Source: an uncultured bacterium (GTDB lineage: Bacteria; Chloroflexota; UBA5177; JANWHV01). Taken from it: a stretch of DNA of 64,000 nucleotides. Of this stretch, positions 3,001-25,747 are shown in pieces. The first letter of the stretch is position 1, and each line of letters opens with the position of its first letter. Made by a program: the position numbers and the translations under genes. Location of the stretch: contig CAWHAE010000012.1 of assembly GCA_963827235.1 (NCBI GenBank), positions 64,001 to 128,000 on the forward strand, read 5' to 3'. The notes under the pieces are model-generated. The model did not search any database and had not been told where the DNA came from. It saw nothing but the letters and a program-made list of their open reading frames with translations.

Positions 3001-3947
3001 CACCGGCAGCACCATCGCGGTCGGTGACGAAGCAGGCCGCGTGCAGCTCTGGGATGGTGCGCATGGCCGGGCGATCGGCGTCCTGTCCGGCGGGCACGCG
3101 AGCAGCATCATCGGGGTGGCGTTCACCCCGGATGGCAACCTGCTGGCGGCCGCCGATGCGAGCGGGCCCATTCAGCTCTGGGACATGGCGCAGAGACGGC
3201 CATTCGGCGCGCCGCTGGATGCGCATGCGTTGGCTCTGCAGAGCATGGCCATGAGCCCCGACGGCAGGCTCCTCGCCGCGGGCTACGCCGACTTCACGAT
3301 CCGCCTGTGGGACGTGGCGTCGCGCCGGCAGATCGGATCGCCGCTGGCCAGCAAGTACGGTGATGTCTCTGCACTCGCCTTCAGTCCAAACGGCAAGATC
3401 CTGGCGTCCGGCAGCTTTGGCGCCGTCGTGCAGCTCTGGGACGTCGCCACGCGCCGACCGCGAGGCACACCGCTCCTCGGCCACGGCGACGCCGTGTTCG
3501 GCCTGGCCTTCAGTCCCGACGGCACGCTCCTCGCCTCGGCAAGCCTCGATCGGACGGTCCGGCTGTGGGATGTGGCGCTCGACCGCCCATCTGGCGCTCC
3601 CCTGCGTGGCCACACCGGCGACGTGTGGAGCGTAGCCTTCAGTGCGGATGGGAGCATGCTGGCTTCGGGCAGCGCCGACGGCACCGTCCGGCTCTGGAGC
3701 GTGGCCTATCGCCGGCAGACTCGGCCCGTCGCTGGTGATCGGCACCATGCTCACGGGTCTCACCTTCAACCGCGCCGGCACGCTGCTGGCGGTGGGCAGT
3801 GCCGGCGGGGTGCGGCTGTGGGACGTCAGCGTGCCGTCCTGGCTACAACGTGCGTGCGCCATCGCCAACCGGAGCCTGACGCTCCAGGAATGGCAGACCT
3901 ACCTGGGCAGCGCGCCCTATCACGCGACCTGTCCCGCCGGTCGTTGA
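2..3947 (+). CDS. TIR-like / nSTAND1 NTPase / TM / WD40-repeat protein (bacterial NLR-like), 5'-partial, frameshift near 3715-3720
   Basis: Frame open from nt 2 (DELRIAELYGRRVCPLWVEG, TIR-like tail); NPYKGL, Walker A GASGSGKSS, LVLDQGEELF, LPLLQFTL, EVSHEALIREWPRL; one TM helix; >10 WD40 repeats. The typical C-terminus (ACAIANRSLTLQEWQTYL..PYHATCP) lies in ORF 3642..3947, another frame. Confidence 0.9.
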
Positions 3948-4031
3948 GGGATCCGCGCCCCAGGGCCCGGCACCGGCAGGCGGTGCGCGAGGCCCTGGGG
4001 CGGTCTGTGAGTAGCGCCAGAAACACGCTGC

Positions 4032-4717
4032 TCAGCGGCGAATCGTGAGGTGGTACGTGACGTCTCTGGCCCACGAGTTGGAGGGCCAGACCGAAAGCGC
4101 AGGTCGAGCGCGTGCCGTCCCGCTGCCAGCGGAGCGAGCATGACGAGGAGGCCGTCTGCCACCGACTTGGTGGTCCCAGGCCCAGGCACGCCCAGCACGT
4201 TGTCGGCGGGATACGCAAAAGTGAAGAGAGGAGTCGTGAACCGGTACCGGGTGAGCAGGTTCGTGAGGTGCACCCCATCCACCGTGACGTCAGCTTCTGT
4301 CACCGATCCAATGCTTGGCGCAGCTGCGCAGTGCCGCGAAGGTGTTGCCGTTTCCTTGCGCGGTCGAACACTCCCAGAGCCGGCGCGATGAGGAGCGCCT
4401 TGCCGGCGGGCACCGTGCAGGCCCGGATATCGGCGCCGCCCATCATGTCCGGTCGAGGTACCAGACCGGGCCGGACTGGCCCACGGCGCAGTGCGCACCG
4501 GTGTGGTCCAGCATGGGGTTCTCCGGTGCGGGTATAGCCATCCACCACTGGACGAGCCGGACGTGCCATTCGCTGTACGAGTGGCCGTAGGGGTGCGCCT
4601 GGGGTGGGAACACGCTGAGGCTGTGCGCTTCCCGCCTGGGCGGCAGGCGCCGGTGCCAGTGGCGAGGACGGCGAGCATGACTACCAGCAACGCGACCAGC
4701 TTCCTCGTGCTTTGCAT
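4032..4717 (-). pseudogene. Secreted hypothetical protein, paralog of 15096-15788 and 15839-16525, several frameshifts
   Basis: MQSTRKLVALL signal peptide; PPQAHPYGHSYSEW, CTVPAGKALLI and ADGLLVMLAPLAAGRH are spread over three frames (ORFs 3920..4771 and 4443..4748, 4300..4569). Confidence 0.8.
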
Positions 4718-4771
4718 GTCTTTCTCCTTCCTGCATGGCGCCGGGCACAAGAAACCCGGCGCACGATCCAT

Positions 4772-4922
4772 ACCATCGTGGCCGGGTTCACCAGTTGCTC
4801 GCCGCAGTCCAGGGGTGGCCAGACAGGAGCAGGCGTCGGCAGGAGAGGAGCGGCCTCGCCGCTCGCGGTGCTTGAGGCGTCAGACCCTTTCTCGGGCTGC
4901 AGGTCAGCGCATCCACTTCGAC
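4772..4922 (-). ncRNA. c-di-GMP-II-like riboswitch variant with ~70-nt insertion, copy 1
   Basis: GG-A-UGC-GCU-GA-C-CUGCAGCCC...UGGCCACC..GGACUGCGG-C-GA-GCA-ACUGGUGAACCCGGCC gives the P1/P2/kink-turn/P3/pseudoknot pattern of c-di-GMP-II (RF01786); TATAAT at 4926-4931 immediately upstream. Confidence 0.7.
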
Positions 4923-5028
4923 CCGATTATAGGCCCGCATGTGCGCCCTGCCCATGAACAGCGCAGCGCACACTAGCGTGCACAGTTGCCGGAGCGACCA
5001 CGTTAGGCTCCAGACAGCGCCCGTACCA

Positions 5029-8163: not shown

Positions 8164-8649
8164 TTACCGGGCAATCTGCATGGGGCGGGACTTCGGATTC
8201 AGTTCCTCCTGGCTGGGGAGCACGCCGAGCTGCTGGAACGCGCCCAACCTATCCCACAACGACCGTACTTCCACGACTTTGCCGCCGGCGAAGCGGAGAA
8301 TAGAGAATGAGGTCCAATGTACGCTCTTGCCTGTGGGGGCGAGATCCAGGAACCCAGCGCCGGCATGTGTGCCGCGGAACGTTTCGCACAGCACCGCGAT
8401 GTCGCCTTCTGCCGTCAGCTCTTCGATCGTAAACATGCCGTCGGGAAAGGCAGCGCGACCCGTTGGGAAAGCTTCTTTCATGGCCCGAGTGCCTGTCGCG
8501 GTGCCAATAGAGCTTGGAACCCGCGGGTCAGGCCACAGGGCGATCTCCTTGAAGTCGGGGGCGAAGACATCGTCGACGACATCCACGTTGCCTCGGTTGA
8601 TCTCCTCCACGAAACGGCGAATCAAAGCCTTGTTGTCTTCTGCTGACAT
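8164..8649 (-). CDS. SnoaL-like ester cyclase (NTF2-like)
   Basis: MSAEDNKALIRRFVEE, AFPDGMFTIEEL.AEGD, GTH.G, PTGKSV, D.LG..QQLG; GGAG RBS. Confidence 0.9.
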   Translation of the reverse strand: MSAEDNKALIRRFVEEINRGNVDVVDDVFAPDFKEIALWPDPRVPSSIGTATGTRAMKEAFPTGRAAFPDGMFTIEELTAEGDIAVLCETFRGTHAGAGFLDLAPTGKSVHWTSFSILRFAGGKVVEVRSLWDRLGAFQQLGVLPSQEELNPKSRPMQIAR

Positions 8650-8820
8650 CGGCTGCTCTCCCATCGTCTGGACGCTTCCGGCCATGGACAAGGCTGATAG
8701 ATCTGGTTCTTCGGCGTAATCAATGCACGAGCACCAGCAACGCGACCAGCTTCCTCGTGCTTTGCATGTCCTGCTCCTTCCTGAGCGGCGCCGGGCACAA
8801 GCAACCCGGCGCACGACCAT

Positions 8821-8971
8821 GCCATCGTGGCCGGGTTCACCAGTTGCTCGCCGCAGTCCAGGGGTGACCAGACAGGAGCAGGCGTCGGCAAGAGAGGAGC
8901 GGCCTCGCCGCCCGCGGTGCTTGTGGCGTCAGACCCTTTCTCGGGCTGCAGGTCAGCGCATCCACTACGGC
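8821..8971 (-). ncRNA. c-di-GMP-II-like riboswitch variant, copy 2
   Basis: Same 151-nt fold; P1 GCCGUAGUGG/CCACGAUGGC; TATAAT 8975-8980; followed by a 15-aa truncated ORF (8720-8767). Confidence 0.7.
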
Positions 8972-9006
8972 TCGATTATAGGGTCGCATGTGCAATCTGC
9001 CAATGA

Positions 9007-9035
9007 ACAGTAGAGCGCACAGTAGCGTGCACAGT
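9007..9035 (-). promoter_or_regulatory. Three ACAGT direct repeats at 12-bp period upstream of the cassette promoter (putative activator site)
   Basis: ACAGT at 9007, 9019, 9031; also at 25336, 25348, 25360, with variants in copies 1 and 3. Confidence 0.55.
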
Positions 9036-9078
9036 TGCCGGAGCGACCACGACAGACTCCAGGCAGCACCCGTACCAT

Positions 9079-15095: not shown

Positions 15096-15788
15096 TCAGC
15101 GGCGAACGGTCAGATGGTAGGTAACTTCTCCGGCCATCAAGACGGGATGACCGAACGAAAAGCGCAGGTCGACAGTATGCCGTCCCGCTGCCAGCGGCGC
15201 GACCATGACATAGATGCCGTCAACCTCCGCCGTGGTGATCCCAGGCCCGTGCACGCCCAGCTCATTGTCGGCCGGATACGAAACGCGGAAGAGCGGAGTC
15301 TCGAACCGGTAGCGGGTGAGCAGACTCGTGAGGTGCTCCCCATCCACCGTGACATCAGCTTCTGTCGCCGTATCCATGGTCTTCTTGGCGCAGCGGCACA
15401 GCGCCTCGGATGTTACGCTGTGCGCTGACGGGTTCTCGAAGTCCCACGCGGCAGCTGGATTGATGAGGAGCGCCTTGCCGGCAGGCACCGTACAGGTCCG
15501 GACATCGGTGCCGCCAAAGTTCGAGGTGAGGTGCCAGACCGGGCCGGACTGGCCCTCCGCGCAGCGTGCCCCGGTGCGGTCCCGCGCAGGGTCCTGCGCT
15601 TTGGGTATGGCCACCCACCACTGGAAATCCCGGACGGCCCATTCGCGGTACGAGTGCCCGTAAGGGTGCGCCTGGGGCGGGTACACGCTCGGCGGTGCGC
15701 TTGCCGCCCGGGCGGCAGGCGCGGGTCCCAGGGCGAGGATGGCGAGCACGACCGCCAACAACGCGACCAGCTTCCTTGAGCTTTGCAT
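15096..15788 (-). CDS. Secreted hypothetical protein (tandem paralog 2)
   Basis: Signal peptide; PYGHSYREW..W, C..GQSGPVW.L, RTCTVPAGKALL, DG.YVM.APLAAGRH; AAGGAG RBS. Confidence 0.85.
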   Translation of the reverse strand: MQSSRKLVALLAVVLAILALGPAPAARAASAPPSVYPPQAHPYGHSYREWAVRDFQWWVAIPKAQDPARDRTGARCAEGQSGPVWHLTSNFGGTDVRTCTVPAGKALLINPAAAWDFENPSAHSVTSEALCRCAKKTMDTATEADVTVDGEHLTSLLTRYRFETPLFRVSYPADNELGVHGPGITTAEVDGIYVMVAPLAAGRHTVDLRFSFGHPVLMAGEVTYHLTVRR

Positions 15789-15838
15789 GTCCTTCTCCTT
15801 GCTGCGCGCCGCCGGGCACAGCGCCGGAAACACGCTGC

Positions 15839-16525
15839 TCAGCGGCGAACGGTCAGATGGTAGGTAACTTCTCCAGCCATCGAGACGGGATGGCCGAACG
15901 AAAAGCGCAGGTCAACAGTATGCCGTCCCGCTGCCAGCGGAGCGAGGATGACCAGGGTGCCGTCGGCCACCGCCTTGGTGGTCCCTGGCCCAGGCACGCC
16001 CATAGAGTTGTCGCCAGGATACGCAAGCGTGAACAGGGGGGTCTGGAACCGGTAGCGCGTGAGCAGGTTCGTGAGGTGCACCCCATCCACGTTCACGTCA
16101 TCTTCTGTCACCGCATCCATACCGCTCTTGACGCAGCTACGCAGTGCCGCGAAGGTGGTGCCGCATTGCCCGGGCGAAGCTTCCACGAGGGCCGGCGAGA
16201 TGAGGAGCGCCTTGCCGGGGGGCACCGTGCAGGTCCGGATATCGGCGCCGCCCTCGTTCGACATGACGTACCAGACCGGGCCGGACTGGCCTACGGCGCA
16301 GTGCGCACCGGTGTGGTCCAACGTGGGGTTCTCCGGTCTCGGCGCACCCAACCACCACTGGACGTCCCGGACGAGCCATTCGCTGTACGAGTGGCCGTAA
16401 GGGTGCGACTGCGGCGGGAACACGTGAATCTGTGTGCTTCCCGCCCGAGCGGCAGGCGCCGGTCCCAGGGCGAGGATGGCGAGCACGACCACCAGCAACG
16501 CGACCAGCTTCCTCGTGCTGTGCAT
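15839..16525 (-). CDS. Secreted hypothetical protein (tandem paralog 1)
   Basis: Same family; directly downstream of riboswitch copy 3. Confidence 0.85.
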   Translation of the reverse strand: MHSTRKLVALLVVVLAILALGPAPAARAGSTQIHVFPPQSHPYGHSYSEWLVRDVQWWLGAPRPENPTLDHTGAHCAVGQSGPVWYVMSNEGGADIRTCTVPPGKALLISPALVEASPGQCGTTFAALRSCVKSGMDAVTEDDVNVDGVHLTNLLTRYRFQTPLFTLAYPGDNSMGVPGPGTTKAVADGTLVILAPLAAGRHTVDLRFSFGHPVSMAGEVTYHLTVRR

Positions 16526-16578
16526 GTCCTTCTCCTTCCTGCGCGGCGCCTGGCACAAGCAACCCGGCGCTCGACCAT

Positions 16579-16729
16579 GCCGTCGTGGCCGGATTCACCA
16601 GTTGCTCGCTGCAGTCCAGGGGTGACCAGACAAGAGCAGGCGTCGGCAAGAGAGGAGCGGTTTCGCCGCTCGCGGTGCTTGAGGCGTCGAACCCTTTCTA
16701 GGGCTGCAGGTCAGCGCATCCACTTCGAC
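16579..16729 (-). ncRNA. c-di-GMP-II-like riboswitch variant, copy 3
   Basis: Same 151-nt fold; P3 3' strand GGACUGCAG; TATAAT 16733-16738. Confidence 0.7.
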
Positions 16730-16824
16730 CCGATTATATGCCCGAATGTACGCCCTGCCATGAACAGCCAATCGCACAGTAGCGTGCACAGTTGCCGGAG
16801 CAACCACGACAGACTCCAGGCAGC

Positions 16825-24353: not shown

Positions 24354-25092
24354 GATCAGGGCGGTATCGCGGTAGGCGAGTGCATGGAAATGGAAGGCCG
24401 CTGTGCGCGCAACGACCCTCTGGCGAACCCGCCCGAGCGGCAGATCAGCCTCGTTCGGCGCGCACGCGAGGGGCGCATGTGTGCACCCTCCGCGACGAGT
24501 AATTGGCGCGAATGGCGTGAGCGGCAGCACCGTCGAGGACGACCCCGCCGACGCCCTGGTCTCCGCGGAGGCGATTCTACAGCTTGTACCCGATCATGCG
24601 CAGGAAGTCTTTGCGTTGCACCTTGGCCGCTTCGTCCTCGATGCCCAACGGCGACTGACCGTCTATCACGCCCACAATGCCCCGCCCTTGTTCGGTCTCT
24701 GCCACGATGACCTGGAGCGGGTTGGCCGTCGCGCAGAAGATACGGCACACCTCGGGCACGTTCTTGACGGCATTCAGCACGTTAATCGGGAAGGCATTCC
24801 CCAGGAAGATGATAAACGCGTGCCCCGCGCCGATCGCTTGAGCCGTCCTCTCAGCCAAGCCAGTCAGCTCTGCATCAGTGCCGGCTGACCGCACGAGCCG
24901 CGGGCCGGATGCCTCGCAGAAAGCCAGGCCGAACTTGATCCCAGGCACACTGTTGACCACTGCCTCAAAGACATCTTCGATGGTTTTGATGAAGTTGCTT
25001 TGCCCGAGGATGAGATTGAGGTCCGGGTCAGGTCTTTCGATAGGGACAAGAGAGAGCTGGACAGGCATATGACCTCCGAAAGCTGTGGCAAT
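24354..25092. repeat. 739-bp duplicate of 35723-36461
   Basis: Same length; no differences seen in the stretches compared; ORF translations within the repeat are identical. Confidence 0.95.
24577..25068 (-). CDS. COG1839 / adenosine-specific kinase family protein, copy 1
   Basis: NLILGQSNFIKT.ED, FGLAFCEASG, IGAGH, FPINVLN..K.VPEVC.IFCATANP, RG..GVIDG, LR.IGYKL. Confidence 0.92.
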   Translation of the reverse strand: MPVQLSLVPIERPDPDLNLILGQSNFIKTIEDVFEAVVNSVPGIKFGLAFCEASGPRLVRSAGTDAELTGLAERTAQAIGAGHAFIIFLGNAFPINVLNAVKNVPEVCRIFCATANPLQVIVAETEQGRGIVGVIDGQSPLGIEDEAAKVQRKDFLRMIGYKL

Positions 25093-25149
25093 GCATGTCC
25101 TTCTCCTTCCTGCGCGGCGCCGGGCACAAGCAACCCGGCGCACGACACT

Positions 25150-25300
25150 GCCGTCGTGGCAGAGTTCACCAGTTGCTCGCTGCAGTCCAACGGTGACCAG
25201 ACAAGAGCGGGCGTCGGCAAGAGAGGAGCGGTTTCGCCGCTCGCGGTTCTTGAGGCGTCGGAGCCTTTCTCGGGCTGCAGGTCAGCGCATCCACTACGGC
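25150..25300 (-). ncRNA. c-di-GMP-II-like riboswitch variant, copy 4
   Basis: Same 151-nt fold; P1 GCCGUAGUGG/CCACGACGGC; TATAAT 25304-25309; pocket strand GGUGAACUCUGCC. Confidence 0.65.
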
Positions 25301-25747
25301 TCGATTATAGGGCCGCATGTGCGCTCTGCCCATGAACAGTCCATCGCACAGTAGCGTGCACAGTTGCCGGAGCGACCACGATGAGCTCCAGGCACCACGG
25401 TTCTCAGGCGCCTCGACTTACCCCATCACAGCAGTGTCGACCACGGCCACCCCTCCGGCTCCGACCGGCACGCCGACGATCTGGGTGCCTACGGCTGCAA
25501 GACGCAATTCATCGGCCCCAGCCTCGCGACAGGCTTGTGGCCGCACCGCGTGGTGCCTACATCGTGAGCAAGGTTGACAATGCATCTGCATGCAAGGGCC
25601 CGGTATGACCCACATCGTATAGACGTGAACGACTTCGCATCTTCATGCACTTGCTCGTGCGCCGGACGAGGCGCTCGGCAACGACGGCACTTTCGGGCGA
25701 CCCGACCCGACCATTGCGCCGTGCGCTCGAATTGGGGGCCACTCCAG

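Follow-up and report, generated by a model that had tools for sequence, protein, structure and literature searches.

Riboswitches of the c-di-GMP-II clan (CL00127; RF01786, c-di-GMP-II; RF03169, c-di-GMP-II-GAG; RF03170, c-di-GMP-II-GCG) are the closest described relatives of an RNA element present in four copies in a 64,000-nucleotide stretch of DNA from an uncultured Chloroflexota bacterium (GenBank contig CAWHAE010000012.1, positions 64,001 to 128,000), the whole of which is referred to as the window. The element shares with the clan the P1-P2-P3 layout and the pseudoknot between the P3 loop and J3/1, has a terminator-like stem overlapping the 3′ half of the aptamer, and is clearly derived from this clan. 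At a site to which the clan models assign about 7 nucleotides (nt), the element has 73. The GAG and GCG in the family names, which we take to refer to ligand-contacting letters, denote variants for which we know of no published ligand. PMC9943018 mentions the c-di-GMP-II-GAG model by name, and a c-di-GMP-II-type aptamer with a long loop insert was not found described in the literature searched, mostly abstracts.

The evidence presented below favours, with a probability of roughly 0.6, a reading in which the insert forms a hairpin arm at the periphery of the aptamer, control is exerted by a terminator-like stem, and the match of the insert to the ribosome-binding site (RBS) arises from the strand bias of a rod-shaped helix.

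Position, conservation and spread of the insert

The aptamer core in copy 2 of the window comprises the following elements.

8820..8972, minus strand: c-di-GMP-II-GAG/GCG-like aptamer including the insert, copy 2 of the window (cmscan, 39.0 bits against a gathering score of 40)
8972-8962 / 8830-8820, minus strand: P1
8960-8958 / 8847-8845, minus strand: P2
8951-8944 / 8858-8851, minus strand: P3
8951-8944, minus strand: P3 5′ strand CUGCAGCC, from direct reading
8871..8943, minus strand: P3-loop insert of 73 nt, directly preceding the pseudoknot strand on its 5′ side, from direct reading; about 7 nt stand there in short relatives
8863..8870, minus strand: pseudoknot 5′ strand UGGUCACC, with its partner GGUGAACC at 8841-8834, from homology with short relatives

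The RF03169 model aligns to copy 2 over its full length (1-86) with P1, P2 and P3 in the model order, and the score falls below the cut-off owing to the cost of the insert. The other copies, also on the minus strand, lie at 4923-4771 (34.0 bits), 16730-16578 (37.4 bits) and 25301-25149 (34.5 bits, GCG model), each having 71-79 extra nt in the P3 loop according to cmscan, and none of the Rfam matches in the window reaches its gathering score. All four are about 90% identical from the promoter through the start codon, and over 25 copies the paired cells amount to 97% in P2, 88.5% in P3 and 100% in the inner part of P1. A preliminary description of the window had noted about 70 nt between the P3 5′ strand and UGG in all four copies. 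This is confirmed for the segment 8943-8871, and the coordinates given at that time (8871-8942) were correct to within one base.

The exact position of the insert depends on the assignment of the pseudoknot strand. The alignment by cmscan takes GGGUC at the start of the loop as this strand and places the insert 3′ of it. This placement is wrong, since the short relatives show UGGYCACC to be the true pseudoknot strand, which directly follows the insert in the window. In the short relatives L016 and L017, a 7-nt loop is followed by UGGUCACC or UGGCCACC and then by the P3 3′ strand, J3/1 reads GGUGAACCCG as in the window, and the pseudoknot strands of the window copies are identical to theirs. 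The candidate strand GGGU (8936-8933), which corresponds to the cmscan placement, was rejected because it clashes with the base of the rod described below and because alignments with the short relatives gave UGGYCACC. The pseudoknot consists of CACC:GGUG plus GG:CC; the CACC:GGUG part is paired in 28-34 of the 34 long copies and is invariant, so that its support comes from homology with the short relatives and not from covariation.

A search with nhmmer retrieved 18 copies of the aptamer from the genome, all carrying the insert, as do all the RF03169 matches in that genome (14 at E ≤ 1, of which 4 reach 40 bits). A covariance model of the long form, R1, detected 34 long copies in the genus, distributed as 18, 11, 3, 1 and 1 across 5/5 of its genomes. 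R1 matches in the 16 remaining genomes of the class either measured only 76-92 nt or were absent, and no long form was among them. In a sample of 151 genomes of the phylum, long matches were restricted to the two genomes of this genus which it contains; the unpublished genome G018 is counted in the figures for class, genus and phylum sample. When 185,579 species genomes were scanned with a pattern, 54 stretches matched, six of which are true long forms. Three of the six, judged by their differing bit scores (97.2, 67.8 and 65.2), are additional to the 34 genus copies, and they come from metagenome-assembled genomes titled Ktedonobacterales and "uncultured Chloroflexia", one copy per genome. 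A similar scan of metagenomes, with a pattern that proved too loose, yielded no true long form among the 80 stretches screened with R1 out of 120 matched. With 37 copies in 8 genomes, the insert is a feature conserved beyond chance.

The probable rod fold of the insert and the expression platform

The insert of copy 2 is made up of the following parts.

8933..8938, minus strand: AAGGGU, purine-rich 5′ strand at the base of the rod, pairing with GCUCCU (8879-8874) within CU tract 2
8925..8930, minus strand: GACGCC motif 1, facing GACGCC motif 2 (8886-8881) in a 6-bp (base-pair) duplex with two A·C mismatches
8897..8913, minus strand: apical hairpin GGGCGGC-GAG-GCCGCUC, with two-sided changes at 5/6 pairs when the alignment is left unfitted to structure
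8887..8899, minus strand: CU tract 1, CUCCUCUCUUGCC, on the 3′ strand of the rod, with GCUC in the apical stem and CUUG pairing with CAAG (8923-8920)
8871..8882, minus strand: CU tract 2, CCUGCUCCUGUC, whose first two C are the last two bases of GACGCC motif 2

When the insert is folded alone, the same rod topology is obtained as the minimum free energy (MFE) structure of the individual copy in nearly all of the 34 copies. The order of its elements is a base helix (mostly AAGGGU, with GCUCUU opposite), the facing GACGCC motifs, CAAG/CUUG, an internal loop and an apical helix GAGCGG/CCGCUC; the apical hairpin that had been described earlier is read in copy 2 as GGGCGGC-GAG-GCCGCUC at 8913-8897. 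The pairing is kept with other letters in diverged copies, namely GAGGAU/AUCUUC in L004, GAGGGU/ACCUUC in L047, AAAGGA/UCCUUU and GGGCGGC/GCCGCCC in L058, and GGGAG/CUUCC, CGAGG/CCUCG and GAGCGGCA/UGCCGCUC in L059. The helix of CU tract 1 reads CGAGG/CCUCG in L060 as well, and the rod base of L224 and L242 reads ACGGCU/GGUCGU. Counts of base pairs at the rod base over 34 copies are A-U 22 and G-C 5, G-U 20 and G-C 12, and U-G 18, U-A 5 and C-G 4.

Compensatory changes were counted in a MAFFT alignment of 34 copies that was not fitted to structure (A5). In it 79.8% of the rod cells pair, and changes on both sides occur in 16/27 rod pairs as compared to 10.4 ± 1.8 in shuffled alignments, only 2/500 of which reach 16; slid controls gave 6-12 pairs. 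The number of cells with changes on both sides is 43, as compared to 16.1 ± 3.2 after shuffling (0/500). A 25-copy alignment (A2) and a model-fitted alignment (A4) agree with A5 on the pairing of the rod. Pyrimidines make up 70-88% of the 3′ strand of the rod in 34/34 copies, and CUCC or CCUC occurs there in 30/34. The CU tracts are the 3′ strand of a covarying rod hairpin. One further helix, CUAGA/UCUGG (columns 30-34/103-107 of A2), was dropped from the final model and is kept in R1; it overlaps the UGG of the pseudoknot, and its pair 34:103 is formed in 12/25 copies.

In the GACGCC duplex, the four Watson-Crick positions are standard-paired in 32-33 of 34 copies, with the commonest pair in 30-32 copies and G-U, U-G or A-U in others, and standard pairs (G-C or A-U) take the place of the two A·C mismatches in 8 and 3 of 34. 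No other part of the insert is as well conserved as these two motifs, and the end of the rod lies 3 nt from the pseudoknot strand; these features would suit a rod that acts as a second functional module centred on the duplex, either binding a protein or a second ligand or responding to pH or ions, and that tunes the folding of the aptamer through the adjacent pseudoknot strand. Such a module is quite improbable, as the near-invariance of the duplex yields no covariation and the resemblance of GACGCC to the GGACGCC pseudoknot strand of GAG-type relatives could make it a relic of duplication.

Two of these relatives, L026 and L030, carry a hairpin of 17 and 16 nt, respectively, at the same insertion point 5′ of the pseudoknot strand where the window has 73 nt. 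The hairpin of L030 (AAGAG...CUCUU) has a purine-rich 5′ and a pyrimidine-rich 3′ strand, a polarity like that of the rod base of the long form, and neither hairpin includes the GACGCC motifs or CU tract 1. Both GACGCC motifs of the window (8925-8930 and 8881-8886) resemble the GGACGCC pseudoknot strand of L026 and L030, and each could pair with the GGUG of J3/1 through CGCC. From this likeness, the insert may have been born from a duplicated pseudoknot strand of the loop.

The expression platform of copy 2 follows directly on the aptamer core and overlaps it.

8803..8837, minus strand: terminator-like stem AACCCGGCCACGA (8837-8825) / UCGUGCGCCGGGUU (8816-8803), followed by UUGCUUGUG; its formation excludes the pseudoknot and P1
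8788..8812, minus strand: hairpin H2, GCGCCGGGU / GCCCGGCGC, whose 5′ strand is shared with the terminator 3′ strand; 89.2% of cells paired, with one-sided changes only
8765..8782, minus strand: purine box or Shine-Dalgarno (SD) sequence AGGAAGGAGCAGG and the cassette ATG (8767-8765), from direct reading; kept in the four copies

The terminator-like stem has 13 bp, is kept in 25/25 copies and shows 96.3% of its cells paired, with the pair 140:173 being C-G in 17 copies and A-U in 4. Its AACCCGGCCACGA strand holds the 3′ strands of both the pseudoknot and P1. An alternative downstream partner, GCCGGGUU, had been proposed earlier for the aptamer 3′ strand AACCCGGC; direct reading bears out this pairing, the partner being the 3′ half of the terminator-like stem in 25/25 copies, and the downstream hairpin GCGCCGGGU/GCCCGGCGC was likewise found at 8812-8804 / 8796-8788. 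A clear run of U5-U7 follows the stem in L001, L012 and L050, and the run is likewise clear in L214, L224 and L242. The same stem with a U run is present in 8/13 short relatives inspected, among them L015 from the unpublished genome G018. Since the stem overlaps the 3′ strands of the pseudoknot and P1, antitermination is implied when ligand is bound. H2 is the MFE structure of the local 53 nt and is present in most long copies.

These observations are consistent with a lineage-specific rod that would have grown from the P3 loop of a c-di-GMP-II-type variant whose relatives have nothing or a small hairpin at the site. The purine-rich 5′ strand would pair with the pyrimidine-rich 3′ strand and join the two ends of the insert, so that the loop would still deliver UGGYCACC to GGUGAACC. 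When ligand is absent, the downstream strand would capture the 3′ strands of the pseudoknot and P1 and form the terminator-like stem, at which transcription is predicted to end in vivo; when ligand is present, the aptamer would retain these strands and transcription would read through, as in the short relatives, which amounts to a putative ON switch. The rod may aid the folding or stability of the aptamer or bind a partner, and the match of its CU tracts to the RBS would be a by-product of the strand bias of the rod.

Several observations weigh against this explanation. The U tract UUGCUUGUG is weak in the window copies, where a strict terminator scan finds no terminator, and the conserved H2 sits downstream of the termination point, where it has no role in a purely transcriptional switch. 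RNAalifold recovers only P3 and two short helices from A5, and not the rod; its consensus folds of MAFFT alignments contain P2 and P3 as well as the apical hairpin and the terminator, without the whole rod and without pairing of the SD. The rod is no stabler than dinucleotide shuffles (mean z = −0.45, with 3/34 copies below −2), and forcing the terminator, P3 and the rod together costs 10.4-25.5 kcal/mol (median 14.5; 22 copies) relative to the ensemble with the terminator only. The results on RNAalifold, stability and forced folding are read as those of a heavily mismatched helix; its RNA is very rich in G+C, and in such an RNA the energy model finds many competing pairings. A plain arm also leaves unexplained the pyrimidine bias of the 3′ strand, the recurrence of CUCC or CCUC, and the near-invariant GACGCC motifs. 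As helix formation alone does not require the pyrimidine bias, this point counts for the anti-SD proposal considered in the next section.

The composition of the 3′ strand and the weak U tracts of the window copies bear on one further explanation, in which the C-rich, G-poor strand (46% C, 17% G) would serve as a loading site for Rho when the rod or the aptamer is unfolded and would add Rho-dependent termination. The composition is found in 34/34 copies, and a rho gene is present in the genome (635 bits, exceeding the cut-off). The tract spans no more than about 33 nt, is paired in the rod supported by covariation and is replaced by a G-richer 3′ strand in L224 and L242, which makes a loading site of this kind highly improbable.

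Complementarity of the insert to the ribosome-binding site

The preliminary description had further inferred a partly nested translational switch, in which the insert carries an anti-SD sequence. The anatomy and the alternative partner of the aptamer 3′ strand on which this view was built hold, whereas its anti-SD part finds no support in the co-variation test given below. According to the nested scheme, the CU tracts would hide the RBS while the aptamer is unfolded, giving control at two levels. The terminator stem would free the 3′ strand of H2, and CU tract 1 with GACGCC motif 2 (CU tract 2 in copy 2) would pair with GGCGCC...GCAGGAAGGAG; with ligand bound, the aptamer and H2 would form, the CU strand would be held in the rod and the RBS would be open. 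Such a scheme is considered unlikely, and the observations on both of its sides are as follows.

Direct reading of the letters reveals 11 bp plus one bulge between CU tract 1 (8899-8887) and the GCAGGAAGGAG-type RBS. In copy 2, CCUGCUCCU of CU tract 2 (8882-8874) is complementary to AGGAGCAGG (8778-8770) at 9/9 positions, and L002 is complementary to its RBS at 12/13. The complementarity reported earlier is thus present in the letters, but it is a generic match that does not exceed chance. The duplex energy of the own RBS was ranked against 600 SD-bearing start regions of the genome over 23/25 copies, leaving out two without a recognisable purine box, and the median rank is 0.23 for CU tract 1 and 0.32 for CU tract 2. 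Ranks below 0.05 are displayed only by CU tract 2 of copy 2 (0.023), CU tract 1 of L002 (0.025) and CU tract 2 of L051 (0.028). Duplexes of long segments computed with RNAduplex, with 400 start regions as controls, were discarded as uninformative, as they reach about −29 kcal/mol with any start region; in these longer regions, too, the own RBS is no better than the others.

Co-variation between anti-SD and SD in homologues, the check suggested along with the nested scheme, is likewise absent. In a 24 × 24 matrix of CU tracts against start regions, from which L047 was left out, the own RBS is no better a partner than those of other copies (mean fraction at least as good 0.57; permutation p = 0.69), and only L002 and L012 (2/24) display a preference for their own RBS. 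Pairing of CU tract 1 with the SD is found in 73% and of CU tract 2 with the SD in 59-70% of cells, values obtained from a downstream alignment that is unreliable for diverged copies. The SD is unpaired in the RNAalifold consensus of 18 copies.

Folding of the leader with and without aptamer constraints, also suggested earlier, gave the expected direction of change, from an SD mostly paired, and often with the insert, to one mostly free. Without constraint, the SD pairs with the insert at P ≥ 0.5 in 12/22 copies; its pairing falls when the aptamer is enforced, examples being copy 2 (0.82 to 0.33) and L044 (0.65 to 0.06). Native inserts pair with the SD at a mean of 0.53 as compared to 0.30 for dinucleotide-shuffled inserts (14 of 25 copies tested), a level reached by ≤ 8% of 25 shuffles in 6/14 copies. 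Part of the drop is by construction, since a nested algorithm with the aptamer closed cannot draw pairs between SD and insert across P3. The support from folding is weak, because the same energy model puts the fold supported by covariation and phylogeny 10-25 kcal/mol above the optimum. The conserved pyrimidine bias with CUCC or CCUC, the conserved H2 and the precedent of preQ1-III, where an anti-SD lies in an embedded stem-loop (PMC11625349), also speak for an anti-SD function.

The location of the matched RBS argues in the other direction. In copy 2, it heads only a relic open reading frame (ORF) of 15 codons and not the downstream gene, and in copy 4 the relic ORF behind the cassette ATG (25096) has 22 codons and differs in frame from the gene starting at 25068. 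The outgroup copies L214, L224 and L242 keep the insert with the conserved start codon and SD about 95 nt beyond a strong U6 terminator. In two of them, L224 and L242, CU tract 2 has been lost; it is replaced by GGUCGUCGUC, which pairs with ACGGCU and is no longer pyrimidine-rich. The complementarity between insert and RBS is real but generic.

Downstream genes and relation to known riboswitches

The aptamer of copy 2 is preceded and followed by the elements listed here.

8975..9003, minus strand: sigma-70-like promoter TTGGCA-17-TATAAT, with 11/12 matches (1 found as compared to 0.1 expected), kept in the four window copies
8720..8767, minus strand: 15-codon relic ORF, MQSTRKLVALLVLVH*, left over from the signal peptide encoded by the secreted-protein gene found after the cassette elsewhere
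8164..8649, minus strand: gene for a SnoaL-like protein of 161 aa (amino acids) with its own SD GGGAGAG, starting 70 nt past the stop of the relic ORF (NF033407, E = 6e-6, below the curated cut-off)

From its letters, the promoter should start the transcript at about 8968, the 5′ edge of P1. Two metatranscriptome libraries contained five contigs of relatives with 85-95% identity that cover parts of 8725-9050, one of them extending upstream past the promoter, and they are uninformative on transcript ends and expression. A direct repeat, ACTGTGCACGCT / ACTGTGCGCT, lies just upstream of the −35 element at about 9005-9040 (minus strand) and at the same place in the other three copies; it is kept in 7 copies of the genome, and one copy on contig C10 has three repeats. 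A transcription factor that acts on these cassettes may use the repeat as its operator.

The promoter and the riboswitch, along with the terminator-like stem, H2, the RBS and the ATG, are found copied as one unit before unrelated genes (minus strand, 8720-9040 and 25066-25370; compare 4560-4990 and 16370-16800). In copy 2, the opening codons of a signal peptide came along with the cassette and gave the 15-codon relic, and in copy 4 the cassette gave the 22-codon out-of-frame ORF, which overlaps the real start. The whole unit behaves like a portable regulatory cassette. The genes downstream of the aptamer copies include a family of 228-aa secreted proteins that has no NCBIfam or Pfam assignment and matched only "hypothetical protein" clusters, as well as a 163-aa protein without a name. 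Copy 1 is followed by a gene (3920-4716, minus strand) that resembles the 228-aa secreted protein of copy 3, with its signal peptide, mature N-terminus and C-terminal part in different frames, and that could be a pseudogene or the result of assembly indels. At 15096-15800 (minus strand), a tandem paralogue follows the riboswitch-controlled 228-aa gene with a AAGGAGAAAGAC-type RBS and no aptamer of its own, and nhmmer revealed several units of RBS plus signal peptide without the aptamer elsewhere in the genome. In L051 and L045, a perfect AAGGAGGUG box stands about 20 nt after H2 and is followed by a signal-peptide-like frame. Close to the box, AUC alone is available to this frame as a candidate start, which could reflect either an unusual start codon or an error in the assembly.

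As compared to the known families, the long form stays below every cut-off in the window. RF03169 gives 39.0 bits against a gathering score of 40, and its J3/1 consensus GGCGAGACCG is not matched by the GGUGAACCCG of the window; RF03170 gives 34.5 bits for copy 4 against 47.9, and its J3/1 consensus GGCGAGCCCG is not matched either, while RF01786 is never the best clan model for the long copies. The short relatives L016 and L017, which share their J3/1 and pseudoknot letters with the window, score 60.1 and 62.3 bits on RF03170, and their core is nearly letter-for-letter that of the long form. This similarity suggests that the long form is best seen as an RF03170 type plus an insert. In J3/1 the window reads GGUG-AA-CCCG, as compared to GGCG-AG-ACCG in the GAG, GGCG-AG-CCCG in the GCG and GGUG-CA-ACCG in the c-di-GMP-II family. 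As these letters match no clan consensus exactly, the ligand may differ. The sister genome G001 carries true RF01786 riboswitches (L029:1501-1586 and L038:1501-1586; 58-60 bits) with U-rich terminators beside its 11 long-form copies, and this coexistence suggests that the variant probably senses something else.

The variant has expanded, with one genome holding 18 copies and its sister 11, mostly before secreted proteins of no known family, and provides a defined regulon for ligand hunting. The natural series from a short loop through a small hairpin to a long rod also allows the role of peripheral domains in a pseudoknotted aptamer to be asked. It is a doubtful prospect that the insert forms a nested module gating both termination and translation from the aptamer's own loop, or that the A·C-mismatched GACGCC duplex is a second sensor setting the threshold of the aptamer.

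The nearest parallel to the nested scheme is preQ1-III, a pseudoknotted aptamer with a hairpin embedded in its loop, whose P4 stem-loop with its anti-SD resembles the model of the preliminary description (PMC11625349). The helix between anti-SD and SD belongs to the family consensus in preQ1-III, whereas neither co-variation nor a preference for the own RBS is found here. The present RNA further differs from preQ1-III by its terminator-like stem and by an SD whose distance from that stem varies from about 20 to about 95 nt. If the arm did gate the RBS as well, it would join preQ1-III as the second natural example of an aptamer whose embedded hairpin contains the expression platform.

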